From an uncultured Candidatus Peribacteria bacterium (lineage in GTDB: Bacteria; Patescibacteriota; Gracilibacteria; BD1-5; UBA6164): DNA of 49,298 nucleotides. Under the pieces are notes generated by a model. It worked only from the letters and a program-made list of their open reading frames with translations. It was not told the DNA's origin and did not search any database. The DNA is taken from assembly GCA_964586815.1 (NCBI GenBank), contig CAZPIB010000002.1, forward strand, positions 1-49,298, written 5' to 3'. Shown here in pieces: positions 163 to 40,561 of this stretch (position 1 is the first letter of the stretch; each line of letters opens with the position of its first letter). The translations under genes and the position numbers were made by a program.

Positions 163-3100
163 TTACCAAACTTTTCTTAGTCTTTTTTTCTTTTTAGGTT
201 CAAAAACTTTATTCCAATCTTCTAAATTATCTTTTTGATCTTCTGTTGTATGATTACTTCTTTTAACTAAGTTTCTTATCTTAGCAATATGTAATCCAAC
301 TAAAAAACTATTTGTAATATCATCTTTAAACATACTTTTCATAGCAAGCCTACCCTTATTATCTTCATCTTCATAGATAAAATTCATTTCTTCTAATAAA
401 TCTTTATTTGAGGTTTTTAAAACCTCAACTATTCATTCTTCCATAAAATCTACTGCATTTCATATTAATCTAGTTTTAGAGACTCTCCAATCTATCCCTT
501 TTGATGATTCTGTATCTCAAGAAGTATATCAGATTTTAATGAGTGTTTTATCTTTAAAAGTATGCTTAAATGCTTCATTGAATCATTCTCATACTCATCT
601 AATATCAACTCAATATACTATCTTTGGAAAACTTCAGAATTGTTTAATGATTGTTTTTTGATAATATGAGATTTGTGTACTCCATTGTTTTTTATGAGAT
701 TTAGGTACAAATCCAGATAAAATAACATATATCTTTCAGTTAATAATATATAGAACTGTAAAAGCACTTCTATCTGCTCAAGGTCTAGCTGGATCAAAAG
801 TAATAATAAAATATCACTCTTCTCAAATAATTGGATATGAACTGGTTTGTAATGGCTTAAAAAGAATATCATCTCAACTGTTCCAGCTACAAAACCATTG
901 CCTTTGATTTTTGGCTTTTGCTTGATTTTTCATAACTCTTTCTCTAAGCTTTGGATTAACTAGAGGATTTTGAGTAATATCAATTTGATAATAACTAACA
1001 TCTGGTAGTGATTCTGATTTAACTGCAATTTTAATTCATGCTAATTCAATTCCTTTTTTTGCCTCCATTATTAAATCATAATAATATCATTTAGCAGTTT
1101 TTCAAGGAGTTCAAATTAAAATCATTCTTCAATTAGTTGTAGCAAGAGTTGGTTCAAGTACTTCTTCAAAAACATAATCACTAATTAATTGAGCCTCATC
1201 AATAATGATATTACTTAAAGTTAATCATAGTACATTTTCAGCATCTCAATCTAGTGTTCTAAAATAGATCTTAGTTCAACTTTTTGTATTTAAAATATAT
1301 CATTCAGATTTAAAGTGAGTAAATATCCCATCATCAAATTTATTAATAAACTTCAACATATAATTTCTAATTACATCTGTGGTTTTTTTAATATATCATC
1401 CAACTAAAGTATCTTCATTTGGTAGAAAACTTAATTCAACTGCTTTTTCAGCTATTGTCAAAGAATTATGAGTCAATATTCAGTTAGAAAAATATAATTC
1501 ATCATCTGATTTTACCGCTATAGTTACAACTTTTTCTTCTCAAATATATTCTATGTTTTTTATTTTAACCCAAAGATAATCTAACCAACTTTCTAAATTA
1601 TCTCAAATAAAGTGTTTTGATTTTATTTTTCTTCTTTGAAAAGGATAAGATGGCTTCTTATTGGTTCTACTAGTATTGGTTATATTATTGACTGCATCTA
1701 ATGGTATTAATGAAACTTTTCAATTAGTTTGAATGTTGTTATCTGTTAATCTTGCTTTAAATTTTGTATAATTTAATTTTGTAGTTATATCTATTTTTGA
1801 ATCTAATAAAATAAGACTCTCTTTGTTAGTTATATATAAATAATAAGCAAATTCTCTATGTTTTTTAAAATTACTTCTTATTTTTTTAGTTCTTATAGCA
1901 CAGATAACCCCTAACTTTAATAATAATAATTGAAGTTGAATAATTAATTGTTTCGAAGTAGAACAATATTCAATACTAGCTGCTCTATTATTAGATATAG
2001 ATAAATATGCATCAGTGTTAAATATTCATTCAAGAAAAGCCCATTGATTAATATTACTTGTTAAAAATACTTTATTGTCTATAAATTTTTCATAAGAATA
2101 TAAATCCACTCAATTAAAATTAGTCCTTTGTTTATATTTTTCAATATTATAAATATTTGATGTTCATTTTAAATTTGAAGTAATTTTATATTCAGAGATA
2201 ATATCTTTTAGTCTATTATGGTTTCAAGAAATTTGATTAGTTTTCCTGCATCAATCTCAAATAAAGTATCAAAGAAGCATAAAATCTTCTCTTGTGTGTG
2301 TTTCTTTTTTATTATCATTGTATCAAAAAGAGTAATTAAATGCTGTAGGAATGAATAAGTTAGCTTCTCTTTGTAGCCTTTCTTGTATTTTTCTTTCAGG
2401 AAGTGTTCTATTCTTATTTAATCTTCTGTTTTCTTTTAATATATCTAATTCTTTATTTAAATTAATGAATTTTTCAAATAAAGATTTAGCATTTATATAA
2501 TGTTCTTTATTATTTAATTTATTTGCATCCCATTTTTCTCAATTAAAATTATGAGAAAGTGGTATTCTATGTTCTTCAGATATTGTATGTTCCATTCAAT
2601 TTTCTAAAGTAATCTTATAACTTGGTTTTTTTGAATAAGAAAGTTGTGTGATTTCAGTAAATTTATAATTACTTCACAATATTTTATCTCATACCTTTAC
2701 GTGTTGGGCTTCTTTATATCAATAATCTTGACAGAATACCTTTTGGTTGTATAGTACACTTTTACCTAGTTGTCTACTTCAATCAAGTAAGATTATTGGA
2801 GAATCATCCTGTAGTAGAGTATCTTGCCATTTTATATAGACTTGTTTAGTTCCCCATTTTGGCACAACATAAGGGGAGTATCAAGTTATCTTTCTTATTG
2901 CATCTCTTGAAATTGTTAAAACTTTCTTTTTCTTTTTATTTTTATTTTTATTTTGTTCTGGTTTTTGAATTGTAGGTCTTTCAGTCTGAATAAAAGTATT
3001 ATTTCTTCAGTCTTTTTTAACTAACCATAATTTAAGTTCATCAATTTTATAATAATATCATTTAAAGAAATAGAAATTATTGTATTGTGATCTTGTTTTT

Positions 3101-3342
3101 TCAGAAATGATTTTATTATAGTATTCATGTTTAGAATATAATTCTATCATTTTTATGGTATGCTCTTGTTGTTTTGTTATATCAGTAAAAATCATAGCAT
3201 TATCAATATTCTCAAAATGAAATTCAAAAGGCAAAGTAAAATACCTAAGATTTTTCCATTTCTTAGGTTCTGCTTCTGGTATTAAATCCTCCTGAGCTGG
3301 ATTGAATGTTCAATTTTTAACTAGCCAATATTTATCTATCAT
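163..3342 (-). CDS. terL: Terminase large subunit, 1059 aa as a precursor, interrupted by an intein.
   Basis: The frame was hand-scanned and contains no TAA or TAG. Walker A is ILLDGSRQLGK/S, Walker B is NIIIDEAQ and the coupling motif is MILIGTPG, with both Gly of LIGTPG encoded by TGA. The ATG overlaps the stop of the upstream ORF. Confidence 0.85.
1465..2760 (-). mobile_element. Intein of 432 aa with a LAGLIDADG homing-endonuclease domain, inserted in the TerL P-loop.
   Basis: The N-terminus is SVLYNQKV directly after GSRQLGK. Block B is ISEEHRI. The LAGLIDADG motifs are LLGYFIGDGC and FLEGIFNTDAYLS. The C-terminus is FSNGILTHN followed by Ser. The spliced extein restores GSRQLGKSLTIAEKAV. 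Confidence 0.8.
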
Positions 3343-3514
3343 TTTTATTATAATTAATATCTACGCTTTCATAATGTGCAATAAGCATTGACATAAAACC
3401 AGACATTGTTAATTCTAATTTTGAAGATTCTTCTCTAATTTTTTTATAATTAGATTCAGTTAACTTTAATGTAAAAACCTTACGAGGTGTTTTGTTTTTT
3501 ATATTATTATTCAT
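3332..3514 (-). CDS. Ribbon-helix-helix DNA-binding protein (60 aa), possibly a small-terminase-like or regulatory factor.
   Basis: It is a complete ORF even in the standard code. KVFTLKLTESNYKKIREESSKLELTMSGFMSMLIAHY has the strand-helix-helix pattern. The ORF overlaps both neighbouring genes. Confidence 0.6.
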   Translation of the reverse strand: MNNNIKNKTPRKVFTLKLTESNYKKIREESSKLELTMSGFMSMLIAHYESVDINYNKNDR

Positions 3515-4229
3515 TTGTATTATTATTTATAAAAATAAATCCTCCAGCTGACTTTCTTTTTCAATTAAGAACAGCAGAGATACTTGAAGATGCAATTTTT
3601 AATTTTTGTCCAGCTTCAGAAGCAGAAAAAAAATAATTAATAACATCTCATTTTTTATCTAATTGAATTATATTTTTCAAATTCAATAATCTTTCATTTG
3701 AAATTGTAGATATTTTAAATTCTTCAATTAAATCTGAATAAACTTTAGCATAAATTTTTTTATATAATCTTTTTTCTATTTCAATTAAAAGATTTGAGTC
3801 TATTATTCTTTTTTTTGGTTTTGGTGTATCTAATATAATAGTTTTTGTACATTTAGTAGAAATTTTCTTTCTTATTTGTTTAGTAGAAATTTTCTTTTTT
3901 ACTTGTTTAGAAAAAATATCATCATCAGTTAAAGTAAAAGTTAATTTTGTATCTGGGCAATACTTTAAAAATTCTTTTTGATTAAATTTTATTTCTTTTG
4001 TAATTAGATCATATCAGATAAACTCTGGAAAGACATCTTCATATAAAGCAGCTAAAGTTATTTTATCAGCTCACATTACTTCATTCCAATCTTTAAAAGT
4101 CTTTTCTAATATTCTAAATCAGTTAACTTGAGTTGGATCCTTTACTTTTACAAACAACACTCAATCATCCCTAAATTCTACTTCTTCCCCATTATAGGTT
4201 ATATGTTCAGATTTATATTTCATCTTCAT
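3507..4229 (-). CDS. DNA-binding protein (240 aa) with a C-terminal NUMOD1/IENR1-like helix-turn-helix. It is the first gene of the packaging operon and a small-terminase candidate.
   Basis: The ORF is open when TGA is read as Gly. The C-terminus GDVINYFFSASEAGQKLKIASSSISAVLNGKRKSAGGFIF resembles homing-endonuclease DNA-binding modules. Confidence 0.55.
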
Positions 4230-4315
4230 TTATAATTATCAATTAAATCTATAAGGTCATAGTATGTATTTTTAACTAAAAAGCAAATCTTTTGTTAACT
4301 TTTTGTTCTTTTTTT

Positions 4316-4536
4316 GTGTAATTTATATAGTTTATAATCAAATGTCATTATGTTTGGTGAAAATGATGGATTTGTGTGGTTTGTATAATTTATATAATTT
4401 GTATTCAAATGTCATTGTGTTTGGTGAAAATGATGGATTTGTGTAATTTATATAGTTTATAATCAAATGTCATTGTGTTTGATTATAATTTGTATTCAAA
4501 TGTCATTATGTTTGGTGAAAATGATGGATTTGTGTG
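4316..4536. repeat. Nested tandem repeat array. The core caaatgtcattRtgtttg occurs four times and ggtgaaaatgatggatttgtgt three times.
   Basis: Cores start at 4339, 4406, 4464 and 4497. The intervening segments are themselves repeated. Confidence 0.85.
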
Positions 4537-4537
4537 A

Positions 4538-4556
4538 GGGGGACTTACGACCCCCC
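4538..4556. other. GC-only hairpin (GGGGG-acttacga-CCCCCC) followed by ACCA.
   Basis: Read directly from the sequence. It is conspicuous in an AT-rich non-coding region, immediately after the repeat array. Confidence 0.6.
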
Positions 4557-4898
4557 ACCATAAAACAAAAAAGTGCTATACCCTTTGTGTTTATGTTTAT
4601 ATATAAATATAATCATTATAATTAAAAAGCCTTTAAAATATTAAGTTTTAAACTTTAATATTGTGGGGTAGTTTATTTTTTAAAAAGATGTGGGGTATGA
4701 AGCTGTATTTTCTATTAAAATTAAAGAGTATATAAAACTGTATATATTCATATATACTTAAGTATATAAAAACTGTATATAAAAGCGCAAAAAATGTACA
4801 AAAAGTTAACAAAAGCCAAAAAGCACAAAAAGCACAAAAAGTTAACAAAATGATAACAAAAAGCGCAAAAAGTTAACAAAATGATAACAAAAAGGCTT

Positions 4899-4948
4899 AA
4901 AAAAAAAATAAAAAAAAATAAAAAAAAATGAAAAAAAATGGAAAAAAA
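4899..4948. repeat. Five phased A-tracts (A7-A10) spaced about 10-11 bp apart, predicted to bend the DNA intrinsically.
   Basis: The sequence is aaaaaaaaaataaaaaaaaataaaaaaaaatgaaaaaaaatggaaaaaaac, directly upstream of a -35 box. Confidence 0.7.
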
Positions 4949-4949
4949 C

Positions 4950-4978
4950 TTGACAAAATACCTTAAAAACATTATAAA
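4950..4978 (+). promoter_or_regulatory. Sigma-70-like promoter, TTGACA-17 nt-TATAAA.
   Basis: TTGACA lies at 4950-4955 and TATAAA at 4973-4978. A-tracts lie upstream, and the operator-like inverted repeat starts about 17 nt downstream. Confidence 0.5.
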
Positions 4979-5480
4979 ATAAAAATTGTTATCATTTTGT
5001 TAACTTTTTGTACATTTTGCTTATAGTTATTTCAAAAGTTCTATGAATAGATCAACATTTTCAATTTTGACCCTATATATATTTATTTTTTTTCCTATAT
5101 AACCAAAAAAACACCCCTTCACAAATTAAACTATATCAATAAAAAAATAATTACATTCTATTCATAGTAGTTTCAAAATAACTATGAGCAAAAAGCGCAA
5201 AAAGTTAACAAAAAGTTAACAAAAAAAAAATAATAACATAAAAAAAATAAATGTAAAGAAAAAAAAAAAAAATGTTATTTTTTTGTTAACACTGTTTGTC
5301 TCTATTTAAAGGCATCTTGAGCCTTTTTGTACATTTTTTGTACTTTTTGTTAACTTTTTGTACATTTTGCTTTTTTATCTTTTTTTATAAAAATATATAC
5401 TTTCAGTAATAATAATAAATAAAAAAGTCTAAAAATCTTTTGACTTTTGTTTGCAAAAGAATATACTTAAGATAGTTAAT

Positions 5481-5557
5481 AAGATACATTTAATTAAAAT
5501 AAACATTTAAAAAACCTTCTTGGTTAGCTTAATGATTTTATTTAACTGATATATTTT
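5481..5557. repeat. Copy 1 of a ~75-bp intergenic element, upstream of the first early gene.
   Basis: aagatacatttaattaaaataaacatttaa...ttggtta.cttaatgattttattt..tgatatatt matches 6245-6320 at roughly 90 percent identity by eye. Confidence 0.8.
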
Positions 5558-5615
5558 TAAAACTATTAATAAACAACATTTAAATAAATAATAATAAATA
5601 ATAATAATAAATATT

Positions 5616-5867
5616 ATGGAAATGCAAACATATAAAAAAAATGCAAAGGTTGTATATATAGAGCAACTCAATTGCTCTAAAAGTTGAAATCCTAGATATG
5701 AATTAATTTTAAATATTTTAGATAATAATGAAAATATAAAAGTATGGACTGAATCAGATGCCAGTTTCGGTTACTCAATAACTAATTGAATGCTAAATAA
5801 AATATATGATTGTGAATTAGTAGACAAAAGAAATAGGATCTATATTGTAGGGGCTAAAAATATATAA
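5616..5867 (+). CDS. Hypothetical early protein (83 aa).
   Basis: ATG is preceded by aataaatATTATG. The ORF has two in-frame TGA and ends in TAA. Confidence 0.6.
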
Positions 5868-5904
5868 TATATATATTTTAATTTAATAATAATAAAAAAA
5901 AATT

Positions 5905-14894: not shown

Positions 14895-15749
14895 ATGAAA
14901 GTATTAAGTTTATTTGATTGAATGAGTTGATGAATGTTAGCATTTAAAAAAGCAAATATAGAAGTAGATAGATATTTTGCAAGTGAAGTTAATAAATATG
15001 CTATTCAAATTAGTCAAAAGAATTTTCCAGAGATATCTCACATATGAGATATAACAAAAGTAATATTTACAGAAAAAATTGATATACTTATTTGATGAAG
15101 TCCTTGTCAAGGATTTAGCTTTGCTTGAAAACAATTAAATTTTGAAGACCCAAGAAGTAAATTATTCTTTGAATATGTTAGACTATTAAAAGAAGTTAAG
15201 CCTAAATATTTTTTACTTGAAAATGTAAAAATGAAAAAGGAATATCAAGATATAATTACAGAAAATTTATTTTGAGTTGAACCTATTGAAATAAATTCTA
15301 ATTTAGTTTCAGCACAAAACAGAAAAAGATTATACTGGTTTTGAAAACTAAAAGAAGATTGAACTTATAAAAAAATAGAAGTAATTCAACCACAAGATAA
15401 ATGATTTTTATTAAAAGATATTTTAGAAAAAGAAGTTGATGAAAAATATTATTTGTCTGAAAAAAATCTAAAACATTTACAAAGAGATTTTGGGAGTAAA
15501 TGAAAACAACAAAACATTAATAATAAAACCTGTACATTAACAGCTTCTATGTGAACTTGATGATGAAATGTTCCTTATTTTACAACTTTACATAAAAGAT
15601 TAAGAAAATTAACACCAATAGAATGTGAAAGATTACAAACTGTTCCAGATAATTATACAAAATGAGTTTCAAATACTCAAAGATATAAAATGCTTTGAAA
15701 TGGTTGGACTATTGATGTAATAGCTTATTTATTTAATCAACTAAATTAA
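14895..15749 (+). CDS. DNA (cytosine-5) methyltransferase (284 aa).
   Basis: Motif I is LSLFDGMSGGMLAF (TGA at 14919, 14928 and 14931). Motif IV is [14 protein letters not shown] (TGA TGA at 15093-15098). Further motifs are [29 protein letters not shown] and [10 protein letters not shown]. Confidence 0.9.
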
Positions 15750-15893
15750 ATGGAAAACAAAGAAAACTTAAAACTACAATTACTAGAAATAGTAAAAGAC
15801 TATACTGATAAAAATTTAACTAATGAGGAATTACGTAAAAATTGATATGAAATTCTTAGTGGGTGACATTGATGTCGGTCAGTTAACTTTTAG
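15750..15893 (+). CDS. Hypothetical protein (47 aa).
   Basis: The ATG directly abuts the methyltransferase stop. The stop is TAG. Confidence 0.4.
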
Positions 15894-18802: not shown

Positions 18803-21800
18803 ATGAATACTATATCAAAATTTACCATTAATCCTCTATCGAAAAAATATTCTTCTGATGAAATGGAATTCATTGATGAATTAAATCTATCAAAAGAAAT
18901 ATGATATGAATTTCCTCATTATTATTCTGATAATACAATTACTGGATATAGAGCAGCAATAATTAAGTGTGATGAAGTGGATGTTGATTACATAGAGCAA
19001 ATATATAAATTAAAACCAAATAAGATTTATTGCCATAAAAATGTAAGGCATTTAGTTTTCTATTTTAAAAATAGTCTTAATAAATATGACTATAATAGAA
19101 TTACAAAAGCATTAGGTTTCTTATATAAATGAAAAGCTATTAATTATCATTTTTATCCATTAAATGGAGTAATTGAAGAGTTTTCTTCAGGAGAACTAAA
19201 CAAGTCATTATCTGATACTTGTACAAAACTATATTTTTTCCAACAACAAAGTATAAAATATCAAAAACTTTTTACAATTAGTGAATTTGATAAATATCTT
19301 GAAGTTGAGAAACTTAAGATAAAAGAAGTTGTAATAGCTTTATATAAAAAAGAGCCAGCAGTAATTCCAGATATTTTAAAATTAATTGATATTAGAAATA
19401 ATATTCATAAAGAATATTGAAATGCTTTTTCTTTTGTTCATCATTATTATTCTAGTATTGAAAAAGCTAAACAATTTTTTAAAAATGATTTTAAGATTTG
19501 ATTTGAAGAAACCAACTCTTTTGATTTTACTAAAGCAAAAGAATGAATAGTAATAAAAGAAGGAGAAAACTTATTTTTAAGTGAATTTTGATATTTTTCA
19601 CTTGATCCATCTGGAAATAATAAAAGATTAACTGATTTTTATATAAAAGTTCATGCAAAAATAGTATGAAAAGACTGAAAACATTTTTTTGTTGTTACTT
19701 TAGTTAACCAATGAGAATGAACTGAAACCAAGAAAATGATATGGGAAAATAAAACTTCTGGAACTACATTTTCTGATTTTATCCAATCTTATTGACCTTA
19801 TCATTATTATGGATGACCAGCTTTTATTAAAGAATTACATAGGCAAATATCTTCAACTAAGCAAATTTCAACAATTCAACAAGTAGTCTGATATTGACAT
19901 CATAAATCTGAATGAATAATTATTTTTAAAAATTGAATATGGGATATAAAAGAAAGATTATTCACAAAAAAGAAAGATAATGATGATGATTATTATTATA
20001 ATTATGATAGTAAATGATATTGGGTTACAGATAAGGGTTGAAATTCATTAACAGAAGTTCTATCTACTTGAGTGCCTAATTTGAATATTGAAGGAGTTGT
20101 TGAGATGGGTGATATTCTTGATTTTATGTCAGAATTATATGCTGATAATTCTTGAAGTTACTTAGTATTTTTAGCATTTGGGATGATGGGGTATCTTACA
20201 TATTGAGATTCAACAAAACCTTTCCCACTAGTATTTACTAGATGAGTAACTTGATGTGTAGATTCAGAAACTGAATACTTAACACCAACTTGATGGAAAT
20301 ATATTAAAGATTATCAAGAATGAGATATAATTTGAGAATTTAATAAAGATACTTGAAAATGTATTTTTAACAAACCATTAGATTATATTAAAGAAAAAGA
20401 TAATAGATTAGCATACAGAATTAAAACTAAAAATATAGATATGCTTCTAACAGAAGAGCATAGATTATTATCACAATCACAAAGAGATGTTTATTCTACT
20501 ACTCAATTATGAGAAGTTGTTTCTGATTTAGAATTACATAAGCACCATAAAACAAATAAATATAATATTCCTGTTGTTTTTGATATTGAAGACAAAATAG
20601 GAATAGATTTATCTGATGTAGAATTACAATTAATGGTGGCAGTTATAGCTAATTGAAGTTTTCCTAAAAAAAATGTTTGATGAAGGTGATGAGAGTATAT
20701 ATCCTATATTAAGATAAAAAAAGAAAATAAAAAAAAGAGACTAAGGGAAATATTGAATAAAACTGATATTTTTGTAGAAGAAAAGAATAATCCCGAATGA
20801 TATACTACTTTCAAATTTGATGCACCAAGAAAAGATAAGGTGTTTTCTAAATATTATTGGGGTGCTAGTAAATCTCAATTAAAAATAATTGCTGAGGAAG
20901 TAAGTTATTGGGATTGAAGTGTAGATAGAAAAGAAAGTGCTGACTTTGTTCAATATGCTTTACTTATAACTAATCAAAGTAATGATATAGAGATTATATC
21001 AACTCAACAAAAAAAGAAATCTACCAGAATAGAATATAAAGATATTGTTAGAGAACAACTTACTGATTGAAATAAATATTGTTTTACAACTAATACAAGC
21101 TATTGGGTAGCTAGAAGAAAATGAAAAATTTTTATAACGTGAAATAGTTGAAAATCTACTTTTAATGAATTACTTCAAAGAGTTTGGGGAATTAAAAAGG
21201 CTGGTACAGATTTTGAAAACTCTACACTTTTTACGATGACAGTAACATTATCTTATTTGATAAAGTTCCCATATTTTATTGCAGAATATAGAGAATCAGC
21301 AAATCAAAGATTACAGAAAGTAGGAACTTTAAGAAGTGTATTTGATAAAATTTCTCAAACTAAAGGTAGAGCAGACCAGTCTGTTGTGAAATATGATTAT
21401 TTTGCTACACCAGTATTAGATTGAGAAGAAATGATAACTGATCCTGCATTAAGGACAAGAAGCTTACAATTACAATTATTAAAAAAACATAAAATTCAAT
21501 GAAACTTCTCAAAAATTTTAAGAGAATGATGATCTATTTTAGATAAATTAATGTTTACTTATTTATCTAAAAGTACTTGAGATAAATACCAAGACTATTT
21601 AGATGAATGATATGATTTTTTTAAAAAACAAACTAGTCAAAATAGAATAGCTCAAAATGTTGCAAGTATTTATGCTTGATGTATGGCATTTAATTCAGAA
21701 AAAGATAATGAAGATCAATATAAAATGGTATTATCTGAAATAATACTTTTCCAAGAAGAGGATGTTTCAGAAAATTCTAATCAAATGCAAATCATTAAAT

Positions 21801-22105
21801 TAATTTCTAAATTTATGGAGTCTTCTTACAATTGAATATATCCATTAAAAGACAGGGTTGTTATTAGTTGGAATGCTTTTGAGGAATATGTGAGTAGACA
21901 TAGACTAAAAACAACGTTAAAAATAGACACATATAAAGAACATTTAATGATAAGGGATTTTAATATAGAATTTATTGAGGTTTGAATTGAGTGATGATTA
22001 GTTGAGTGAATTATTATTCCTTATAAATTAATCCCCAAAAATTTATTAGTCCACACAGAAACATATAAATTTTATAAGGATTGGAAAAATTTATCTTCTA
22101 ATTAA
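18803..22105 (+). CDS. Large replication ATPase, primase/helicase-like with a P-loop (D5/P4-like). The precursor is 1100 aa and is interrupted by an intein.
   Basis: The whole frame was hand-scanned and contains no TAA or TAG. The P-loop is split as FTRGVTG / SGKSTFNELL, and splicing restores GVTGSGKST. Confidence 0.7.
20255..21145 (+). mobile_element. Intein of 297 aa with a LAGLIDADG-like endonuclease region, inserted in the Walker A loop of the replication ATPase.
   Basis: The N-terminus is CVDSETEYLTPTGW and block B is LLTEEHRLL. The endonuclease-like motifs are LMVAVIANGSF and IIAEEVSYWDGSV. The C-terminus is YWVARRKGKIFITGN followed by Ser. The penultimate residue is Gly (TGA) rather than the usual His. 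Confidence 0.7.
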
Positions 22106-29014: not shown

Positions 29015-31018
29015 TTAATATGAAGTTGTTGGATATGAAGATTGATACACTGGTCTTTGTGCATCTGGCTGATCATTTGCTTTAGTTAAAATTGTGCGTC
29101 ATTCATTTCTCATCCATGTTTGCCAAGCTAAATAATCTTCATGACTATATCAATCTGGATTTATACCATTGGCTAGTAATATGTTTATTTGAGCGGCTCT
29201 TAATCCAGTTTTTTTAGTTCAACTTCAAGAACTTCTTGGAGTGGCTCTTAATATTGCAACTTTATGCTCTAATTGTCTTTGTAGTTCAGCAGCTTTTTCA
29301 ACATCTGCAACTGCTTTATATAATTCAGAATTTTCATTTCCTAAATCTGCAATCATTTCTTTTAATGCTTCAACTGAATTTAAATTATCAAGATATTTCT
29401 CCATAACCACTTGAGCAGTTCCACTTATTCCAAGTTGAGTAATAAATTTTGAAACTGTATTTATAACTTCAGCTTTATTGTTATCTTTATCTTGAATATT
29501 TGCTCTTGCAATTTTAAAGGTATTTGTAATAAAATTATCTTTAAAGGCTCTAATATTAGTTTGTGTTAATTGTCTTGTTTTTTCAATAGCTATATTAAAT
29601 TCATTTTCATTTAATATTCATTCTTTTTGTAATCCTAATAATACTTTTTCAGATTCTTGCCCAACTTCTAATATTTTATTTTCCATATCAGTTGTTGCTT
29701 CATTTATTTTTTCTAATGCTTGACTTCATAGTTCTCCACTCATTGCAAGTAATTGTTCTGGTGGAATGTTTCCTATATTAATTCATCTCCTAGCTAACAG
29801 CGCTCTAATTCTACCAGTAATTTTATTCAATTCAGTAGTTTTAGTTCTTTCTAATGCTTTTAATGAAGCTTCTCTCATTTCTTCTAATAAGATCTTGTTT
29901 CTTTTTATGGATTCAGATAAAAAAGATTGCATTCTCTCTTCGTTATTTCATAGAACCATTAAAGTTCTATTATAATTTTCATTTGCTTTCATTATTTTAT
30001 CTTCCATTGTTTCTTTTTCTATATCTATTTGTTTTTTATTTAAATCTTCTACCTTTTTTTCTTTGGTTATAATTGTAGAATCAAGAGTGTTTGTTCAATC
30101 TTGAAATGGATTATCCTTAAGGAATCATTTTGCTTTTATATATTCTTTTGAGTCTTTTCAAAATTTTGCTTCTACTCTAGATAGTAAATCTGAATCAGTT
30201 TTCCCAGACAATCTTAATTCTTGTAATTTATCAATATGTTTTTTATTTTGTTCCTGAGCTGTTAATCTTTTTACAGGCTTAACTCTTTTAAATGTATTCT
30301 TTTTAGTTTGATTGGCTATTGTATTCTTTTCTATTGTATTTTTTTCTACCTTTTTTGAAGGAATATTGTTGTTTTCTCTAATTTTTCTTCTAAGTAAAAT
30401 ATTTTGTCTAGCAGTTCAAGTATAGTTTTTTATTCAATGTTTTTTAGCAGCTCACATTCTTTCTGGACTATTCCATTTTTTTGAAAAAATAACTTTTTCA
30501 TTAATTTTTGGTTTATTCCTTTTAAAATCATTTTCTATGTTTCTTTTATTTGAAGTTGTATTGTTTTCTCTGACTCTCTTAACTTCAAGCTTTTCATTTT
30601 TTTGAACATATGCTCTAATTTTTCTAACTTGTGGACTATTTGCCCCATATTTCCTCGCTGCAATATTAATAATATTTTTTCAGATATTAAATTTTTTAAC
30701 TGCTGCTGTGTTGTTTTTGATTCTATCAATTCCAGCTCTAACTCTAGATTTTACTCTAGATCTAAATGTATTTGTTTGAGTAGGTCTTGAGCTAGTAGGT
30801 CTTGAGCTAGTAGGTCTTGAGCTAGATGGTCTTGAGCTAGATGGTCTTGAGCTAGATGGTCTTGAGCTAGATGGTCTTGAACGAGATGGCATATATCCCC
30901 CTCTTCTTAATGCTGCACGAAGTTTTCTCTTAGCAGTTTTACTTCAATGAGAAGCTTTTATTTTTTTAAAAGCTGCTCTAACTCTAGTTTTTTGTGAATT
31001 AGATAATTTTTTAACCAT
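29015..31018 (-). CDS. Large basic, coiled-coil protein (667 aa) with unknown function, probably virion-associated.
   Basis: The frame was hand-scanned and is open. It contains track ORFs 29225-29410 and 30680-30892 and an (SRP[ST]SS)x6 repeat near the N-terminus. Confidence 0.7.
30780..30889. repeat. An 18-bp coding tandem repeat of about six units, encoding SRPSSS/SRPTSS.
   Basis: The unit ggtcttgagctag(a/t)(t/a)g is reiterated. Confidence 0.85.
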
Positions 31019-31163: not shown

Positions 31164-31191
31164 AATAAAAAAAGCCCTATTTATAAGGCTT
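31164..31191 (-). terminator. Weak intrinsic terminator after the methyltransferase gene.
   Basis: On the minus strand AAGCC-10 nt-GGCTT is followed by T8. The stem is only 5 bp. Confidence 0.4.
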
Positions 31192-33373
31192 ATTTAAGTA
31201 AATTATCAAATATAGCTTTTACTACAGGTACACTTACTGCATTACCTGCTTGTTTATATGCTTGTGAATTACTCATAAATTCAGTAGACCAGTTATCAGG
31301 GAAGCCCTGTAATCTTGCACACTCTACAGGTGTTAATTTTCTTATTATAAAATCGTCTAAAACTACCCCGTCTACTCCTGCTACTGTTAAAGTTCCACTT
31401 ATTCACTCTTTAATTCTGCTTCTTTTTGTTATACTTTTTGGATTATCTAAAATAACACCGTCCCCTATTTTAGCCTCAGCATATCATTTTTTAGTCCCAT
31501 TGTTTAATTTTATAAATTCATATATCTTTGGTCTATTTCAACCATCTCCAGCTGTTAGAGTTGGTACTAATCAATCCATACCAATAAAAATATTATCCTG
31601 ACTAAAATTACAAAAACTAGGATCCTTTAAATTTACTTGTAGTTTTATTTGTTTGGAATCTCTTGGAGTTATTTTATTATAAATTCTTTTTAAACTATCA
31701 AAACTTAATTTTTTATATTGTTCTTCGGTCATAAAAAATTTACTATCTACTTCTTTTTCTAAAATATCTTTTAAGAAAATATTTAATTCTTTACCTTCTG
31801 GGAAGTTGAAATAATCTAAAGTTCCCACACCTAATTTTCAAACTATAAAAACCCTTTGTCTATTTTGTGGCAATCAAAAATCTTTTGTATTTAAAACTTG
31901 AAATTTTACATCATAACCAGCATCTTTTATTCTATCTAAAATACTTTCAAAAAATCATTTGAATTTTTTATTTAAAAGCCCTTTTACATTTTCAAAAATA
32001 AAATATTGTGGTTGTTTTGTTTCTAAAATCTGTAATAAATATTCAACTAGTATAGTTCTTCAACCTTCCTTTAGGTTTTGTTTTCACGCTACACTAACAT
32101 CCTGACAATTATGTACAATGCAATTGTTTGCTGTGTAAGAATTATCATTTTCAACTTCTATATTATAAACAGTATTTGTTTCTTCTAAATATTCTTTTGA
32201 TTTAAAAGGTAGCCACATATATCAATTTATATTAATTCAATTGTCTTGTGTTTTTTTTTCGAACTTAATATCTAATGAATAAGTATCCCTCTGGTTAACT
32301 TCTCTTCATTCAATAATTGTTTTAGGTTTTCTTTTTGTATAATATACAGATGTAGGAGTTCAATATACTTTATGAACTAATTGTTGTATTCATAATATAA
32401 GTTTTTTTGATACAGATGAAACACGGTAATATCACTTATCCTTATAATAGTGTCAATCTCAGTCTATATATCATATTAATAATTGCTCTAAGTATTCTTT
32501 ATTTAATCACATTATTGATGTTGGTATAAATTTTCAATAACTGTATTTTCAAAATTGTTCCATATACTCCACAAATTCTTTATTTGCAATATAATATTTT
32601 AAAACAGTTCTGTCATCTACTTTTGAATAATTAAATAATCACTCTAGTAATTCTTCTACTTCTTTGTATTGATTTTTATTACAACACAATACTACTCTGT
32701 GTGATTTACGCTGTATATTTGGTCATCTACTATAACTACCCCACCATCCATCTGCTAGAAGCCTTCAAACTAATTTGTAAAATTTTAAACTTTTATCAGA
32801 ACATTCTGTAAGATCATCTTGAATGTTAAATCATATAAAATCTCATTTATTTAAATCTTCTACATTTTTCCACTTCGGTTCACTAAAAACTCTTTCATAT
32901 TTTCTAATTGAATTATTCCACTTTTTAGTCATTTCCCTTACATAATATGGATGCTCATTTGTTACAAAAGTTTCTAATGCTCCCTGTATTTTAACATTAT
33001 AAATTCATTTTTTATTTGGAGTTACAAAATGCCTTAATACTTTTTGATATTTATTTGTGTGTGTTAATACATAATCTCAAACTTCCATATTTTTAATATC
33101 TTTATATCACTTTTGTGTTAATACCATTGTTCATTCTTTAAAACAAGGAAATCCACCAGTTAATAAATCAAAATCAGGTAAATTTTCTATATCTATTTTT
33201 GTTATATCTCATAAATCAGGACTAGTTGCAAAATGTTCTTTATAAACTATTTTAGCAAATTTATCTATTTCGCTAAAGCCTATACATTCAATATTTTCTT
33301 TACCTATACTTTTCTCTAAGGCTAAATGAAAACCACCTATACCAGAAAAGGTATCTAAAAATTTCATAATCAT
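31190..33373 (-). CDS. DNA (cytosine-5) methyltransferase. The precursor is 727 aa and is interrupted by an intein at the catalytic Cys.
   Basis: The frame was hand-scanned and is open. Motif I is FLDTFSGIGGFHLAL. Motif IV is split as LLTGGFP / CQDVSVAGKQ. Further motifs are ENVKGL, QNRQRVFIVG, RKLTPVECARLQGFPDNW and AGNAVSVPV. Confidence 0.85.
32108..33145 (-). mobile_element. Intein of 346 aa with a LAGLIDADG homing endonuclease, inserted between Pro and the catalytic Cys of methyltransferase motif IV.
   Basis: The N-terminus is CFKEGTMVLT and block B is VTNEHPYYV. The LAGLIDADG motifs are LVGRLLADGWWG and LLIGYIDGDGHY. The C-terminus is TANNCIVHN followed by Cys. Confidence 0.8.
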
Positions 33374-34669: not shown

Positions 34670-34784
34670 TCTATATGTGTTTTACAAAATTAAATATTTC
34701 TTCATATTCTCTTTTATTTCAGGAACTGTTTTAAACAGTTCTATTAGTTTTTCTTTATTTGTTTGCATAATTATTAGTTAAATA

Positions 34785-35189
34785 TTAATCTTTTATTATA
34801 AATCATAATACTTTTAAGAAAACAGGTACCTGTTTTTTAGTTAATTGACTAGTTCCTCATTTACCATAAAATTTACAATTCATTAAATCAGCTTCTGTTA
34901 AATTAGCTCCTATTAAATCAGCTCCTCTTAAATTAGCTCCTCTTAAATTAACTCCTCTTAAATTAGCTTCTGTTAAATCAACTCCTGTTAAACCAGCTTC
35001 TATTAAAACTTCTTTAATAGTAAAATATTTAATAGAAGTAAAAATTATATTTCAAAAAATAGATTTTATTTCAAATTTCTTTTCTTCTTCTTTATTTTGT
35101 AGTTTAAATTTTGTATGAAGTTTAATTATTTCTTCAACTTCATTTTCACTAAGTTCTATTTTTTTATTCTTTAATTTGTATTTCATCAT
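34785..35189 (-). CDS. Pentapeptide-repeat protein (134 aa).
   Basis: AGLTGVDLTEANLRGVNLRGANLRGADLIGANLTEADLMNC gives about eight A(D/N)LXX repeats. Confidence 0.75.
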
Positions 35190-35238
35190 TGTTTTAGTTA
35201 ATAATATTAAAGTAAGTCTACTTTATCTATTTTTAAAA

Positions 35239-35273
35239 AGAAATCAAAAGATTTTTTAACTCTTTTGATTTCT
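35239..35273 (-). terminator. Intrinsic terminator with a 13-bp perfect stem.
   Basis: The hairpin is agaaatcaaaaga-ttttttaac-tcttttgatttct, with a T-run after it on the minus strand. Confidence 0.7.
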
Positions 35274-35322
35274 TAAACATTTTTAAAATAATATTTATTA
35301 TAAGTTTTTACTTATAATTGTT

Positions 35323-35535
35323 TTATTTAATATTTGCATTTTTTATGTTTTCTGGAATTTCTGTATTATCATACATTTCTATATTGTCATCATCTTTATT
35401 ATTAAGTAGATTTTCTACTTTAGCAATAAACAATCATAAGAATAATCCAGAATATAATTCTTCTCCAAAGTATAATAATCATAACCCTACAGCAAGTAGT
35501 GCTGATAGCATTATATAATAGTCTAATCTTTTCAT
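35323..35535 (-). CDS. Two-TM small membrane protein (70 aa), a holin candidate.
   Basis: The two helices are YYIMLSALLAVGLGLLYF and LYSGLFLGLFIAKV, followed by an acidic C-terminus. Confidence 0.5.
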
Positions 35536-35539
35536 AATA

Positions 35540-35950
35540 TTATTTTTTTTTAAAATATAAAAATCAAAACAGTCTAACTGCTGACCATATAATCCAACTC
35601 TTAATCTTTCAGGCTCCCTCAACCTGAATAGCTTCTTTAAAGATGTTATCAGAGTGAAGCCTTGTAGGTCTTATAATCTCACACTCATTTTCAATAAGAA
35701 TTTTAGATTTCTTAGAATAAAGAAAGTCGTGTAAAATATATCAGATATAATGAGTAGGAGAAAATATAGCTTGCATAAATCTAGGGATAGAACCAAAGTC
35801 AGTTATAAATCACTTGGGAACAAGAATGTAAATATTTTTATTGTTAAAGTTTAAATACCGTACAAATTCTTCCATAACCATAAAATCTTTTTTAGTTCAA
35901 TTTACCTTTGATAAAAGTAAATTATTCTTACTTGCTTGAGTATAGTTCAT
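35540..35950 (-). CDS. DUF1353-like phage protein (136 aa).
   Basis: The motifs are VPKGFITDFGSIPRF and YILHDFLY. Confidence 0.6.
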
Positions 35951-36065
35951 AATTTTTATTAGAAATTAAATCTTTAATTACTTGCTCTCCTATTTTTATT
36001 TAAATCTTCAAGTAAATTATTTGCTTGATGAAGTACAAGTGGAGCTGTAATTTTTCAATCCATAA

Positions 36066-36326
36066 TTATTTTTTACAATTAAGTAATAAATCCTTATGTT
36101 TTTCTTTAATTAATTGTCTAGTTATCTGATGTTCATCTTTACTAGATTTAAGATGAGAGATTATGTCTCATAATTTATTAATAAAAGCTGTGTCTCTTTC
36201 TTTAACTAATGCTAAATAAGAATTGAGAAAAGGTTTCATCATCTTATATAATCAAAGTAATAAAATTACAAGCATAACTACTGCTAATCCTTCATCCCAT
36301 AATGTCTCTATTAATTGTGTTTCCAT
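36066..36326 (-). CDS. Single-TM membrane protein (86 aa).
   Basis: The helix is GLAVVMLVILLLGLY. Confidence 0.5.
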
Positions 36327-36344
36327 TGTTTTTTTAATTATTAA

Positions 36345-36626
36345 TTAATATTTTTTATATCTTATAATTCAATTTTTATAATAATATTTATTATCAGGTA
36401 TATTTAATATATTATATATATCTGATTTAAAATCAAGAGTAAATGCAGGACTTAATATATCTATTAGCTGATTTATTTGTTCTACTGGTGTTTTAGCTAG
36501 TCAATTTTTATCTAGAAGATTATGTAAAGACTGATGAATATGTTGCTGTAATTGAACAATATTGTTTGGATTATTAGTTCATCATAAGTGTTTTGGATAT
36601 AAATGATGATTGCTTAAATTATTCAT
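36345..36626 (-). CDS. HNH endonuclease (93 aa).
   Basis: The motif is HHLYPKHLGGTNNPNNIVQLQQHIHQSLH. Confidence 0.65.
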
Positions 36627-36629
36627 AAT

Positions 36630-37058
36630 CTAATCAATTATTAAATATTCTGTTGGTATAGTTTCTCAACTTATTTTATTTATATGTTCTTCTCTTATTA
36701 TAAATGTTCAAGGTGTTTTTTCAACTAAATCTGTATTCTTTTTAATCCAATCAATAGCTTCTATTGTAGTATTAAATATTTTAATATTAAATTCAGCTCA
36801 TACATTAGTTATTGATTTAGATAAATCTTCTGCTTTAATATATTTTTCATTATATTCTCAAATTAAAAATCTAGTTTGTTTTTTAATTCAAGGAACTATT
36901 TCAGAAGTATATCTATTTTCTGAAATTTCATTATCTAAGGTTTTAGTTAAGCCAGCTTCTAAAAAATCAGAAAACTGTTTATCTAAGAAATAAGATGGAG
37001 TATATCTTACTCAAGTATTAGTCCATTTATGTCTATATGTTCAATATATTTTTTTCAT
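36630..37058 (-). CDS. Hypothetical protein (142 aa).
   Basis: The ORF is open with TGA=Gly and has a TAG stop. Confidence 0.5.
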
Positions 37059-37060
37059 AG

Positions 37061-38406
37061 TTATATTATTTTATTAGAGTAATAAAGTGCTTGGATTTGT
37101 TGTGGTGTTAGGGCTTGGTTATAGATTTTTATATCTGAAATTTTTTGTCAAATAGTTGCAGACATAGGAGTATTAGAACTATTAAACATTCTAGTATTTA
37201 ATGGCGTAACTCATCCTATATAATTTGATGTTCAGCTGTCTTCTAATCTTCAATTAATATATAGTTTTGTATTATTTCATTGTAATGTAAATGCAATATG
37301 TGTCCATTGATTAAGGTATGTTTTTTTAGCTCTTACAATATTTAAATGCTGTGTTGTTCATCAGTTTCATATACCTACATTAATAATATTATCCCAGTTA
37401 TTAGATAGTCAAAAAATAATATTTTTATAATTAGGATCCCAATCATAACAAAATACTGACCATTGTCAGTTTACTTGATATACTAGTCAACTTATTGTCT
37501 TATCTCAAGCTCAAATAATACTATTTGTTCATAAGTTAATACTAGATGTATTACTTGTTGTTCTCATAACCTTATTTAATCCTAAATTACTTACTATCAC
37601 TCATCAACTTTGTGTTCAGTGATTTCAGTTTCAACTTTGGTCATAATAAGTATTTAAATTATGTGTTCAATCTATATGAAGCACAGGCTTAGGAAGAGAG
37701 AGTGGGGTGTATTTACTAAAAGCTCAATTATTTTGTTGTATTATTGAAGGTCAAAATTTTCTTAGTCATTCTAGGTAGAGGTTATTTATTTCTTTTTGTG
37801 AAAGAACTCTGTTATATATTCTTACTAATCAGATATTTCAATTAAAATAAAATCAATCTCAGTTATATCTTCATATTAACCAATTTTTAGAACTATCATT
37901 AGCTTCTATACCTACTCAAGCTCTTTGAACAGAATATGTTACTTCAATTCAATTAACATAAATATGAATAATTTTATCTGCTCATATTGTATATTGTACA
38001 TATGTCCAAGTATTTAATTTAATTATTCAAGAATGAGATGTTGAACGGGAAGCTGTGGTTGAAAAATGACAATCACCTTCTATAGCTCAATCAGATTTAA
38101 TATTAAACCATTTCCAATTCTTAGAAAAAGGCATTTGATTAGTATTAAATGAATTTATTTTAATAAAAGCTCAAACAGAAAATACTCATAAATTGTTAGT
38201 TGTAGTGCTATTAGATATATTTACTCAACTATTACCCCCATTAAAACTTCCACATTTTTTACATACCCTCTATCAGCATTTACCCAAGTTACATTTGTAG
38301 CTGTTCAATTATTACTTCAAGCTGTATCATTAGCATTTCAGTCTAATAAATATTCAGCTACAAGTCCATCTCTTGGGATTGTTTCATATCAATAATATTG
38401 TGCCAT
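37061..38406 (-). CDS. LamG/concanavalin-like domain fibre or receptor-binding protein. It is about 448 aa if the two frames are joined by a -1 shift at 38254-38260.
   Basis: The N-terminal 51 codons (GLVAEYLLDGNANDTAGSNNGTATNVTW...GYVK) and the 398-codon downstream frame (CGSFNGGNSGVNIS...) form one continuous LamG-type sequence. The downstream frame was hand-scanned and is open, but has no start codon near the junction. Confidence 0.65.
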
Positions 38407-38417
38407 ACTTATTTTGA

Positions 38418-40253
38418 TTAAGAGATATTAATTAAACAACTGAAATCTGAACCAGCTACTGCACTTCAAACTTGTGTTATTTTTAATGTAAATACATCTG
38501 TATTTACTAAAGCTGTTGCTATATTTAGATTTGCTATATGCCTGCCATTTATAGCAATTCATCACCCATTAATTATACTTATATCTTTATTTAGACTAAT
38601 TCAGTTTTTATAGCATTTAACTATAAAATTAGCACCAGTATTTGCAACTTGTAAGGCTATTTTTATATTTCATACTGTTTTATTTCAGTCAGCTATATAC
38701 TCAAAGAATTCAGTTCAAGCTATTTGTGGTCAAGCTATTTTAACTGTTTCTATTCATCAGCCTCCTCATCAGGCATTATCATCTACATATTTTTTAGTAG
38801 CAGGATGATAATTTGTTGTTGGAATAAAACTTGTTGTATTATTTTTTTCTAATACATTAGTCTTATCTGCTTTAGTGTTATCTGATGGAGGTGTATAATT
38901 TCACTCTAACATAGTTCCAGCAGTAGTTCAAAACTGTAATTTATTTTTAATAAAAGTATCTAATGTATTATTTATCTCATTAAAATCAGATTGTACATTA
39001 GCTTTTGCATTATTTTCAATGGTTCATAATTTAGTTTTCTCTATATTTGTAAATTTTTCTCAATCAAGATTGATTATTGGATTCGCTGGATCTAAATTAT
39101 TAATAGTTATGTTACTTCATCAGACTATTGATGATATGGTTCAACTTCAATTTGTTACTGTGAAAGTTGAAGTAGTTCCATTTTGATATGTAATTGTGTA
39201 AGTATCTATAAGTCAAACAGTTCAAGTTTTTGTTGTACTAACAATTCAACTTCAATTTGTTATTGTATATGTTGTGTTTGTTCAATCTGTGAAGTTAATT
39301 TGATAAGTATCTATAAGTCAAGTAGTATTTATCTTTACAATATTAATAATTCAACTTCAATTTGTTATTGTATATGTTGTGTTTGTTCAATCTGTGAAAT
39401 TAATCTGATAAGTATCTATAAGTCAAGTAGTATTTATTTTTACAATATTAGCAATTCAATTTCAATTTGTTACTGTGAAAGTTGAAGTAGTTCCATTTTG
39501 ATATGTAATTGTGTAAGTATCTACAAGTCAAGCAGTTCAAGTTTTTACTATATTGGAAATTCAATTTCAATTTGTTATTGTGAAAATTGAAGTAGTTCCA
39601 TCTGTATAAGTGATAGTATAAGTATCAACAATTCAAGTAGTTCAAGTTTTTGTTATGCTTTCAATAAAATTTCAAATAAATAATCAGTGATGTCTATACT
39701 CTATTTTAGAAATAAGGGAACTTACAACAGTAACCTCAGCAGTAATTATTCCTTTTTCAGTAGTAGCTGTATTCTCATTAGTTGTGGATTTTATTGTATT
39801 TGTATTAAGTTTATAATATATATAATTAATTCAGTTAGATAATATTAAATCTTGATCCATTACTTCTATTGTTTCTATTCATTTAGCTATTGGTCATCAT
39901 AAAACTCTTATCTCTACATTTCATAATTGTTCAATAAAAAATGTTGTACTATTTAATTTAGATAAATAGTTGAAAACTAAAGAAGTATCATTGATTTGTA
40001 CTTTTTCTGTACTAAGATGTGATTTAGGCTCAATCCTATCATTTCATCTTACATAAATAGAGTTTCAAACAACTTTATTATAAAACATTTTTTCTCTATT
40101 TAAAATGTTGTCTGGATCTACAATAATAAATCATTTTTGATGTTGTGGTACTTGAGTTACAATTAAAATAATATCTCAACTATCTGCTAAGTTATTTGTT
40201 AATTCTGTTTGGTAAAAATCTTCTACAAGAATATTTTTAGTTGTTTTTGACAT
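38418..40253 (-). CDS. Tail fibre protein (611 aa) with five 35-aa tandem domains.
   Basis: The frame was hand-scanned and is open. It contains the repeat G-I-x-N-I-V-K-T-G-T-x-G-L-(V/I)-D-T-Y-x-I-x-(Y/F)-x-(D/N)-G-T-x-(S/T)-x-(F/Y)-T-(V/I)-T-N-G, the fibre motif HPATKKYVDDN, and a GGGGGG linker encoded tga tga gga ggc tga tga. Confidence 0.75.
39130..39655. repeat. A 105-bp coding tandem repeat of five units inside the tail fibre gene.
   Basis: The units at about 39246-39350 and 39351-39455 are nearly identical. The flanking units are more diverged. Confidence 0.8.
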
Positions 40254-40276
40254 AATATTAAATTAAAATATAATTA

Positions 40277-40561
40277 TTATCTTTGGAGTCTTATTTTAGG
40301 TTTTAATCTTCAAATCATTGCTTTTTTTTGTCATAATCTTCTATTTTTTAATCTTGTAAGAACTCTTAAATTAGATAATTTATTTCAAAAAGAAACTCAT
40401 TTTAAATGATCCACTTCTTTTCAATCTCACTTAGTTACTTTCCCTTTTTTCTCCATAATTCTTCTTGCAAGTGTTCTTAGGACTTTTTCATGTCTTTTTA
40501 TTGGAGATTTATTATATTCTCTCATATATTTATTCATATATTCTGTGCTGTTTGCTGGCAT
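40277..40561 (-). CDS. Small HNH-like nuclease (94 aa).
   Basis: The motif is GKEVDHLKGVSFGNKLSNLRVLTRLKNRRLG. Confidence 0.5.

Follow-up and report, generated by a model that had tools for sequence, protein, structure and literature searches.

The 49,298-nucleotide (nt) contig CAZPIB010000002.1 of assembly GCA_964586815.1, analysed here over its full length and called the window throughout, holds three genes that are each interrupted in frame by a LAGLIDADG intein: those for the terminase large subunit (TerL), a P-loop ATPase and a C5 DNA cytosine methyltransferase (Dcm). The window uses genetic code 25, in which TGA encodes glycine, and is the complete genome of a tailed phage with SU10-type capsid and portal proteins. 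A first-pass annotation made from the letters alone had proposed these three inteins, in enzymes of packaging, replication and DNA modification, and had counted them together with three small open reading frames (ORFs) as an unusually high load of homing-type elements. We set the boundaries of all three inteins to the residue by aligning alleles, which gives the following arrangement (aa, amino acids).

163-3342, minus strand: TerL precursor, 1059 aa, with N-extein 2761-3342 and C-extein 163-1464; 627 aa when spliced
1465-2760, minus strand: intein 1, 432 aa (aa 195-626), Ser1...THN/Ser+1, between the Walker A Lys and Ser
18803-22105, plus strand: P-loop ATPase precursor of the replication module, 1100 aa; 803 aa when spliced
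20255-21145, plus strand: intein 2, 297 aa (aa 485-781), Cys1...ITGN/Ser+1, inside Walker A GVTG/SGKST
20651-20653, plus strand: AAT, encoding Asn where intein 2 would be expected to have the catalytic acidic residue of its LAGLIDADG motif 1
31190-33373, minus strand: Dcm precursor, 727 aa, with N-extein 33146-33373 and C-extein 31190-32107; 381 aa when spliced
32108-33145, minus strand: intein 3, 346 aa (aa 77-422), Cys1...VHN/Cys+1, at GGFP/CQ

Three in-frame insertions at active sites

Pfam assigned LAGLIDADG_3 (3.6e-11), Intein_splicing (2e-7) and Terminase_6N to the 1059-aa TerL ORF, and removal of aa 195-626 left a protein with a 6.4e-30 match to PHROG 2, 'terminase large subunit'. Seven intein-free homologues of 628-635 aa read SRQxGK/SLTIAEK over the site at which the Walker A motif of the window, SRQLGK/S, is interrupted, and TerL is also intein-free in the relatives L006 and L008-L010; against these stand two alleles with an intein, that of the window and that of L005 (P0023), whose homologous intein lies at the same TerL site with 47-51% identity, Ser1 and a THN/S end. 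The splicing residues of intein 1 are S1, block B TISEEH and THN/S, both acidic residues of its LAGLIDADG motifs are kept (LLGYFIGDG and FLEGIFNTDA), and hhalign aligned it end to end with the Pfam-validated Dcm-intein family (97.7% probability, E 2e-12).

The Dcm ORF matched DNA_methylase at 2.9e-71 and, both above the Pfam cut-off, Intein_splicing at 8.3e-9 and Hint_2 at 4.7e-7, as well as LAGLIDADG_3 (1.2e-6) and the NCBIfam model TIGR01443 (intein_Cterm). Alignment places the start of this intein one residue later than a naive reading. Once spliced, Dcm matches TIGR00675 (dcm) at 4e-77 over residues 5-379 of 381 with no gap at the intein site, and the motifs GGFPCQ, FENVKG and LPQNRQR are present. 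Intein 3 has C1, block B VTNEH and VHN/C as splicing residues and two intact LAGLIDADG motifs (LVGRLLADG and LLIGYIDGDG); the junction GGFP/C...VHN/CQD makes the +1 nucleophile the catalytic Cys of the enzyme's own PCQ motif. An intein occupies the same Dcm site in more than 100 database clusters, and no close intein-free orthologue was found among the best 120 matches, all of which carry inserts; the loci of relatives compared here do not include this gene slot. The window itself encodes a further, uninterrupted enzyme of this class:

14895-15749, plus strand: second C5 methyltransferase (GGSP-CQGFS), Pfam DNA_methylase 3e-49

Over 48 nt its site is identical to the occupied one at 31 of 48 positions, making it a potential, unoccupied intein site within the same genome. 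The second methyltransferase gene sits between the helicase gene and a DnaG-like gene, a place at which the syntenic relative L002 has no gene.

For the ATPase, there are eleven homologues of 800-812 aa from which precisely aa 485-781 are missing and which read GVTG/SGKS, and one homologue (P0002) keeps the insert, so that 11 intein-free alleles stand against 2 with an intein. Intein-free alleles, which the first-pass annotation had recommended surveying, thus close up exactly for TerL (7) and the ATPase (11), and none close to the window's Dcm came to light. The empty sites of relatives show 71-81% identity over 48 nt to the reconstructed site. The ATPase insert matched phrog_32482 at 5.5e-25. 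An exhaustive HMMER search with it returned 1,049 matching clusters, and within the best 150 of these its full-length homologue, the insert alone, occurs in 118 proteins. Across 103 canonical members, from which the family statistics were taken, Cys1, the block-B His and a +1 Ser, Thr or Cys are each present in 103/103, the end reads ...[T/S]GN, and the penultimate residue is Gly in 98. The motif [STC]GK[ST] follows the insert in 86 of the 103 and Gly precedes it in 90, which means that the insert always splits a Walker A loop, although its hosts are as varied as SNF2, DnaB, RecD, UvrD, polymerase III clamp-loader, MCM, RecA, KaiC-like and TraG ATPases. In an hhalign comparison that is valid at the family level only, the family aligned with the Pfam-validated Dcm inteins at 95% and E 3e-8, spanning Cys1, block B and both LAGLIDADG motifs; LAGLIDADG_3 was matched by 6 of 43 relatives, and a four-sequence profile of the insert searched against the Protein Data Bank (PDB) had only a sub-threshold match, to the AceL NrdHF intein (E 0.44). 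The exact intein-free alleles, the insert-only homologues, the family residues and the family-level alignment together settle the call, and on these features intein 2 is assigned to a large, P-loop-specific lineage of LAGLIDADG inteins with a penultimate Gly.

The window's copy retains the splicing residues of this lineage (C1, block B LLTEEH and TGN/S) and an intact second motif (YWDG), and its first motif reads VIANG, with Asn at the acidic position. Each LAGLIDADG motif supplies one metal-binding acidic residue. The corresponding Asp is present in 103/103 family representatives and in the closest relatives P0002, P0014 and P0015, and the window's AAT codon is a single G-to-A change from GAT. 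With Asn at a family-invariant Asp and the splicing residues kept, intein 2 is probably unable to home: its endonuclease has probably been inactivated, leaving a copy that would still splice.

The identity of the ATPase is less sharply drawn than that of the other two hosts. It has no match in Pfam, NCBIfam or PHROG; one distant homologue gave a weak DUF927 match (3.6e-4), and the window's protein gave a marginal match over 82 residues across the P-loop to PDB 8tch, a staphylococcal 'pathogenicity island protein' (E 2.4e-4). Its neighbours encode a DEAD helicase, a DnaG zinc ribbon and an exonuclease. It is probably a Rep/helicase-like protein, and because the DUF927 and 8tch matches are weak, a role in replication is plausible but inferred. 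The packaging and modification hosts named in the first-pass annotation are secured by profile matches for TerL and Dcm, and the replication label stands on the weak matches just given.

Taken together, the inserts have the attributes of class 1 inteins. Precise absence from alleles was seen directly for TerL and the ATPase and through the gap-free TIGR00675 match for Dcm; Cys or Ser at position 1, the block-B Thr/Ser-x-x-His, a terminal Asn and a +1 Cys, Ser or Thr occur in all three. Hint or splicing profiles are matched by intein 3 in Pfam, by intein 1 through hhalign and by intein 2 through hhalign at the family level, and all three have two LAGLIDADG motifs with profile support, the catalytic acid being present in each motif of inteins 1 (GDG/TDA) and 3 (ADG/GDG) and missing from one motif of intein 2. 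Allele-based boundaries and profile or hhalign matches thus bear out the proposal of three in-frame LAGLIDADG inteins in the genes named at first pass; it had been staked on fewer than two of the calls failing profile analysis, and all three passed.

Genetic code and the relatives of the inteins

Under the standard bacterial code the whole window yields 8 ORFs of at least 100 aa, and once TGA is taken as sense, ORFs extend from 17% of the sequence to all of it, as a compact two-armed gene map. TGA stands at invariant glycines of Walker A (G..G.GKS), FGLPQNRQR and the LAGLIDADG motifs, where relatives have GGN codons; Trp is still encoded by TGG; and the gene stops are TAA (53) and TAG (4). Genome-wide, 629 of 942 Gly codons (67%) are TGA, and TGA makes up 4-8% of codons, well beyond Trp frequencies. 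TGA at conserved Gly, TGG as Trp and the absence of TGA stops are the marks of code 25, and the window shows all of them. ARAGORN found no tRNA genes in the window, so the 629 in-frame TGA codons must be decoded via a host tRNA-Gly(UCA). The public records of the three precursors (P0016 for 163-3342, P0001 for 18803-22105 and P0036 for 31190-33373) are translated with TGA as Trp (code 4), as are most relatives' protein records, which places dozens of false Trp residues in each protein and weakens profile matches. Such translations hide Gly-rich motifs, and automated intein or domain surveys would miss cases of this kind.

The inteins are themselves written in this code. As the first-pass annotation had read from the letters, TGA-Gly codons lie within the conserved LAGLIDADG motifs of all three, and the intein 2 site is itself flanked by Gly codons that are TGA. 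TGA accounts for 53 of 59 Gly codons in the inteins (90%) and 75 of 125 in the exteins (60%; Fisher p = 3e-5). The GC content of the inteins, overall and at third codon positions, matches that of the genome, of which the three together (3,225 nt) make up 6.5%. With about 90% of their Gly codons as TGA, they would be functional only in code-25 translation systems.

Intein 1 has diverged from the L005 intein about as far as the exteins have from each other (51 versus 52% identity); the L005 intein is recoded, with TGA for 13 of 16 Gly, and the next relatives are DnaB inteins (cyanobacterial) at about 25% identity. Intein 2 has P0002 as its sole close relative, which is recoded and shares 75% identity in the intein and 68% in the exteins; none of the 103 other family members, all at 45% identity or less, appears recoded. 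Intein 3 is 72% identical to the intein of P0037, with exteins only 37-49% identical. P0037 comes from an 80-kb Gracilibacteria contig on which it adjoins dnaN and yidD, identifying the contig as bacterial chromosome, and its intein uses TGA for 24 of 25 Gly. An intein so much closer than its exteins points to transfer between code-25 genes. The four closest relatives of the Dcm intein (58-71%) all come from TGA-recoded genomes and every standard-code relative lies at 46% or below; a scan of genome contigs with this intein returned only a 33% Tissierellia match, uninformative on code-25 taxa. For every intein, then, the nearest relatives all come from TGA-recoded genomes, and standard-code relatives are set off by a gap, at 46% or less (25% for intein 1). 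Since relatives without the TerL and ATPase inteins are equally near, these two have been gained or lost within this phage group.

The codon bias, the recoded-only close relatives and the disparity between the Dcm intein and its exteins agree with the first-pass suggestion of inteins that have been resident in code-25 genomes for a long time or have moved from one such genome to another, which the data support. Within the Dcm gene, 29% of Gly codons are TGA in the exteins (10/34), 88% in the nested intein and 67% in the genome as a whole, which suggests that the methyltransferase gene is newer in a code-25 background than its intein, or under different constraint. We further advance, tentatively and with rather more doubt than belief, the idea of the genetic code as a one-way valve, through which inteins may enter code-25 genomes from standard-code donors and then be trapped. 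Were this so, the glycines of the inteins, those of the catalytic motifs included, and the Gly codons of the homing site would drift to TGA until function in standard-code cells was lost, and private, code-confined intein subclades would circulate between code-25 chromosomes and phages.

Small open reading frames and genome context

The first-pass annotation added three small ORFs to the homing-type load, which we list here with the terminal overlap of the contig.

3507-4229, minus strand: NUMOD-like protein, 240 aa, with a C-terminal NUMOD-like helix-turn-helix (PF22083, 3.8e-9)
40277-40561, minus strand: HNH_3-like ORF, 94 aa, lying between two tail genes at a locus of variable content
36345-36626, minus strand: possible minimal HNH ORF, 93 aa, with an N-terminal HH..P...GG....N...H...H pattern
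1-55 and 49244-49298: identical 55-nt ends of the contig (repeat family D5), with an ORF spanning the junction

The domain call for the NUMOD-like ORF held, and its standing as a homing-type element did not. Its N-terminal 181 aa have no Pfam match at E values up to 5, no nuclease domain of the HNH or GIY-YIG type accompanies the module, and its distribution is not sporadic: L003 (31% over 231 aa, E 2e-29) and L004 each have a homologue upstream of TerL. With its missing nuclease domain and its conserved position upstream of the terminase, this ORF is not a homing element. A degenerate homing endonuclease was also considered and rejected, given that relatives keep homologues over the full length at that position. 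The product is, on its helix-turn-helix match, a DNA-binding protein, possibly with a small-terminase-like or regulatory function.

Neither HNH candidate reaches a curated threshold. The ORF at 40277-40561 matched HNH_3 at 3.7e-4 (20.5 bits, cut-off 24.8), phrog_4590 at 6.5e-13 and phrog_4578 'HNH endonuclease' at 2.4e-5, and it is absent at the same junction from L003 and L004, which have an unrelated 86-aa ORF instead, and from L008-L010, where the junction is empty. Sporadic by these comparisons, it is a credible but unproven candidate for a free-standing HNH insertion. In L005, at 15732-15754, a 93-aa ORF starting MNNSLEY occupies the slot of the window's ORF (which starts MPANSTEY) and may be its homologue; the locus ends there. 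The ORF at 36345-36626 gave HNH_5 at E 0.025 (15 bits, cut-off 27.5), HNH at E 1.2, phrog_655 at 3e-3 and phrog_10088 at 5e-3 ('homing endonuclease'), and its reading as an HNH domain is marginal. Of the two free-standing HNH ORFs first proposed, one is thus partly upheld. Pfam detected no further Hint, HNH, GIY-YIG or LAGLIDADG domains in the rest of the proteome, and an Rfam scan of the window returned no families and hence no group I or group II introns.

The identical 55-nt ends show that the contig closes on itself as a complete genome of about 49,243 bp. An ORF of about 135 aa crosses the junction (48815-49298 and 1-162) between the portal and terminase genes and includes the 15-nt repeat (APKTE, three to four times) that makes up the terminal overlap. 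Pfam recognized SU10-type capsid and portal proteins, a DEAD/ResIII helicase, a DnaG zinc ribbon, an exonuclease, an M15 peptidase and a laminin-G tail protein, a gene set that, with code 25, identifies a code-25 tailed phage. A 7-kb Megablast query found no match among deposited phage genomes, and no relatives appeared among viral contigs scanned with the capsid protein. The host is most likely a Gracilibacteria- or Absconditabacteria-type bacterium, as judged from the sequence.

Other parts of the window are marked by repeats. A non-coding, repeat-packed stretch of about 1.4 kb (4230-5600) lies at the divergent switch of the two gene arms and may be an origin or regulatory region; it contains four direct repeats of about 67 nt (4313-4537) and arrays of A-rich units spaced about 11 nt apart (4779-4983 and 5180-5281). 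Within the ORF at 38418-40253, five tandem 105-nt (35-aa) repeats of the form TGT.GLxDTYTITY..GT...FT.TNG.GI (39140-39746) belong to a tail-fibre-like protein. Tandem 15-nt arrays occur at 30753-30902, encoding SRPSS/SRPTS repeats near the N terminus of a 667-aa protein (ORF 29015-31018), and at 34868-35022, in a pentapeptide-repeat protein (ORF 34785-35189; Pfam Pentapeptide, 1.3e-13).

Weighing the readings, and known systems

We hold with considerable confidence that the window is best explained as a code-25 tailed phage with three inteins at active sites, for which splicing and homing are predicted functions. Three essential or near-essential genes are each split in frame by a class 1 intein with a nested, double-motif LAGLIDADG endonuclease, at points where an active-site Ser or Cys can serve as the +1 residue: GK/S in TerL, G/SGKS in the ATPase and the PCQ Cys in the methyltransferase. 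Translation would have to read TGA as Gly even inside the intein motifs; the inteins are then expected to excise themselves and ligate the exteins, restoring the active sites, and their endonucleases could cut intein-less alleles in co-infection, or between host and phage genes, and so spread. No catalytic residue needed for this is missing from inteins 1 and 3, and intein 2 probably represents a late stage of the homing cycle, a copy able to splice but no longer to home.

Several observations weigh against this explanation. The Intein_splicing match of intein 1 scores 31.4 bits, under the Pfam cut-off of 35.8. In single-sequence searches, the 1100-aa ATPase and the isolated insert 2 have no match in Pfam, NCBIfam or PDB sequences; the penultimate residue of intein 2 is Gly in place of the usual His, as in 98 of its 103 relatives; and AlphaFold models were too poor to inform, with a predicted local distance difference test score (pLDDT) of 46 for an intein-free ATPase allele and 35 for an SNF2 protein with a related intein. 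The recoded-only pattern among nearest relatives rests on 1, 1 and 4 close relatives, and the host phylum solely on the genetic code and one closest Dcm match.

A first alternative accepts the inteins and disputes their activity: the elements would be fixed relics and no active load, the inteins persisting only because they are difficult to delete precisely from an active site, and the HNH and NUMOD ORFs would be ordinary phage genes with packaging or regulatory roles. The Asn of intein 2 at a position that is Asp in all 103 relatives fits this, as do intein and extein identities compatible with vertical inheritance (51 versus 52% for TerL, 75 versus 68% for the ATPase), a NUMOD ORF that lacks a nuclease domain and is shared with relatives, and two HNH matches below Pfam cut-offs. 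Yet the acidic residue of each LAGLIDADG motif survives in inteins 1 and 3, equally near relatives without the TerL and ATPase inteins place gain or loss recently relative to genome divergence, the identity of the Dcm intein (72%) far above that of its exteins (37-49%) speaks for recent horizontal movement, and the HNH ORF at 40277-40561 is missing from relatives. We regard the relic view, its account of the small ORFs included, as unlikely, though far from negligible.

It is much less probable, to the point of being hard to sustain, that insert 2 is a lineage-specific accessory domain retained in the mature ATPase. The failed single-sequence searches, the missing penultimate His and the uninformative structure prediction speak for it, but a retained insert would split Walker A (GVTG/SGKST) and make ATP binding impossible. 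It would also have to be precisely absent from eleven orthologues and present, as homologous inserts, in the Walker A motifs of unrelated ATPases, with Cys1, the +1 residue and the block-B His in 103/103, a terminal Asn and the 95%, E 3e-8 alignment to validated inteins. That the window uses code 4, the motif 'glycines' being really Trp, is next to impossible and was rejected: the database copies P0001, P0016 and P0036 do show W at TGA, but TGA stands at universally conserved glycines (G..G.GKS, FGLPQNRQR, LAGLIDADG and the penultimate Gly of the intein 2 family) where relatives have GGN, it is too frequent among codons that keep TGG for Trp, and the closest Dcm comes from Gracilibacteria, a code-25 phylum (PMC10746230).

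Returning to the intein-bearing code-25 phage, the 'unusually high load' of the first-pass annotation survives in part. The density of inteins is high, a judgement made with no rigorous baseline, and their kind is ordinary; only the inteins, and possibly a single HNH ORF, qualify as homing-type, and one of the endonucleases is likely dead. P-loop and methyltransferase-Cys inteins, multi-intein phages and code-25 phages are already documented separately. Surveys in the literature count 415 inteins for mycobacteriophage cluster C1 alone and also record inteins in terminases, methylases, helicases and primases, so multi-intein phages and these host genes and sites were already known. Inteins had apparently not been described explicitly from a code-25 phage before, no earlier account having been found in the searchable literature, and the window adds an intein common to a Gracilibacteria chromosome and a phage despite divergent host genes. 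The data set is small and clean, and suggests that selfish elements can be divided into separate gene pools by the reassignment of a stop codon; code-confined intein subclades common to code-25 bacteria and phages would be a testable and moderately interesting extension.

The closest precedent for intein 1 is the mycobacteriophage TerL P-loop intein 'TerL1-a', for which the position between Walker A Lys and Ser/Thr was described as a 'classic' P-loop site (Kelley et al. 2016, PMC5050341). Intein 1 resembles it in lying between the Walker A Lys and the nucleophilic Ser/Thr, in its nested LAGLIDADG endonuclease and in its sporadic occurrence among related phages; it differs in its host, a T4/Terminase_6-type TerL of an SU10-like phage in place of terminase_1, in its Ser1 nucleophile and TGA recoding, and in having cyanobacterial DnaB inteins (about 25%) as nearest non-recoded kin. 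Phage inteins have likewise been listed in the C-5 methylase of actinobacteriophages, in helicase and in terminase (bioRxiv 10.1101/2025.01.02.630785). Intein 3 shares with known C5-methyltransferase PCQ inteins the site FP/C...HN/CQ, Cys1, Cys+1, a length of about 345 aa and LAGLIDADG motifs; unlike the others, it belongs to a small subclade (58-72%) confined to TGA-recoded genomes, the Gracilibacteria chromosome included. Intein 2 has the CVD..TE[FY]L start, block-B S/T..H, two LAGLIDADG motifs, ...TGN end and G/[S/T/C]GK[S/T] site of the P-loop lineage, and is set apart from the rest of it by its host, an uncharacterised phage ATPase of about 800 aa, by its unique motif-1 Asn and by TGA recoding, for which P0002 is the only other example in the lineage. 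The NUMOD-like protein carries a DNA-binding module of the I-HmuI type, as in I-HmuI / I-TevI-type NUMOD endonucleases, and departs from them in its conserved position and in having no HNH or GIY-YIG catalytic domain.

Code-25 phages have been documented for Gracilibacteria and Absconditabacteria (PMC10746230), and the window resembles these in its dense in-frame TGA codons, its near lack of code-11 ORFs and its independence of TGA stops. Inteins and homing endonucleases are not mentioned in that account (0 occurrences). To these phages the window adds three inteins, one of which it shares with a Gracilibacteria chromosome.

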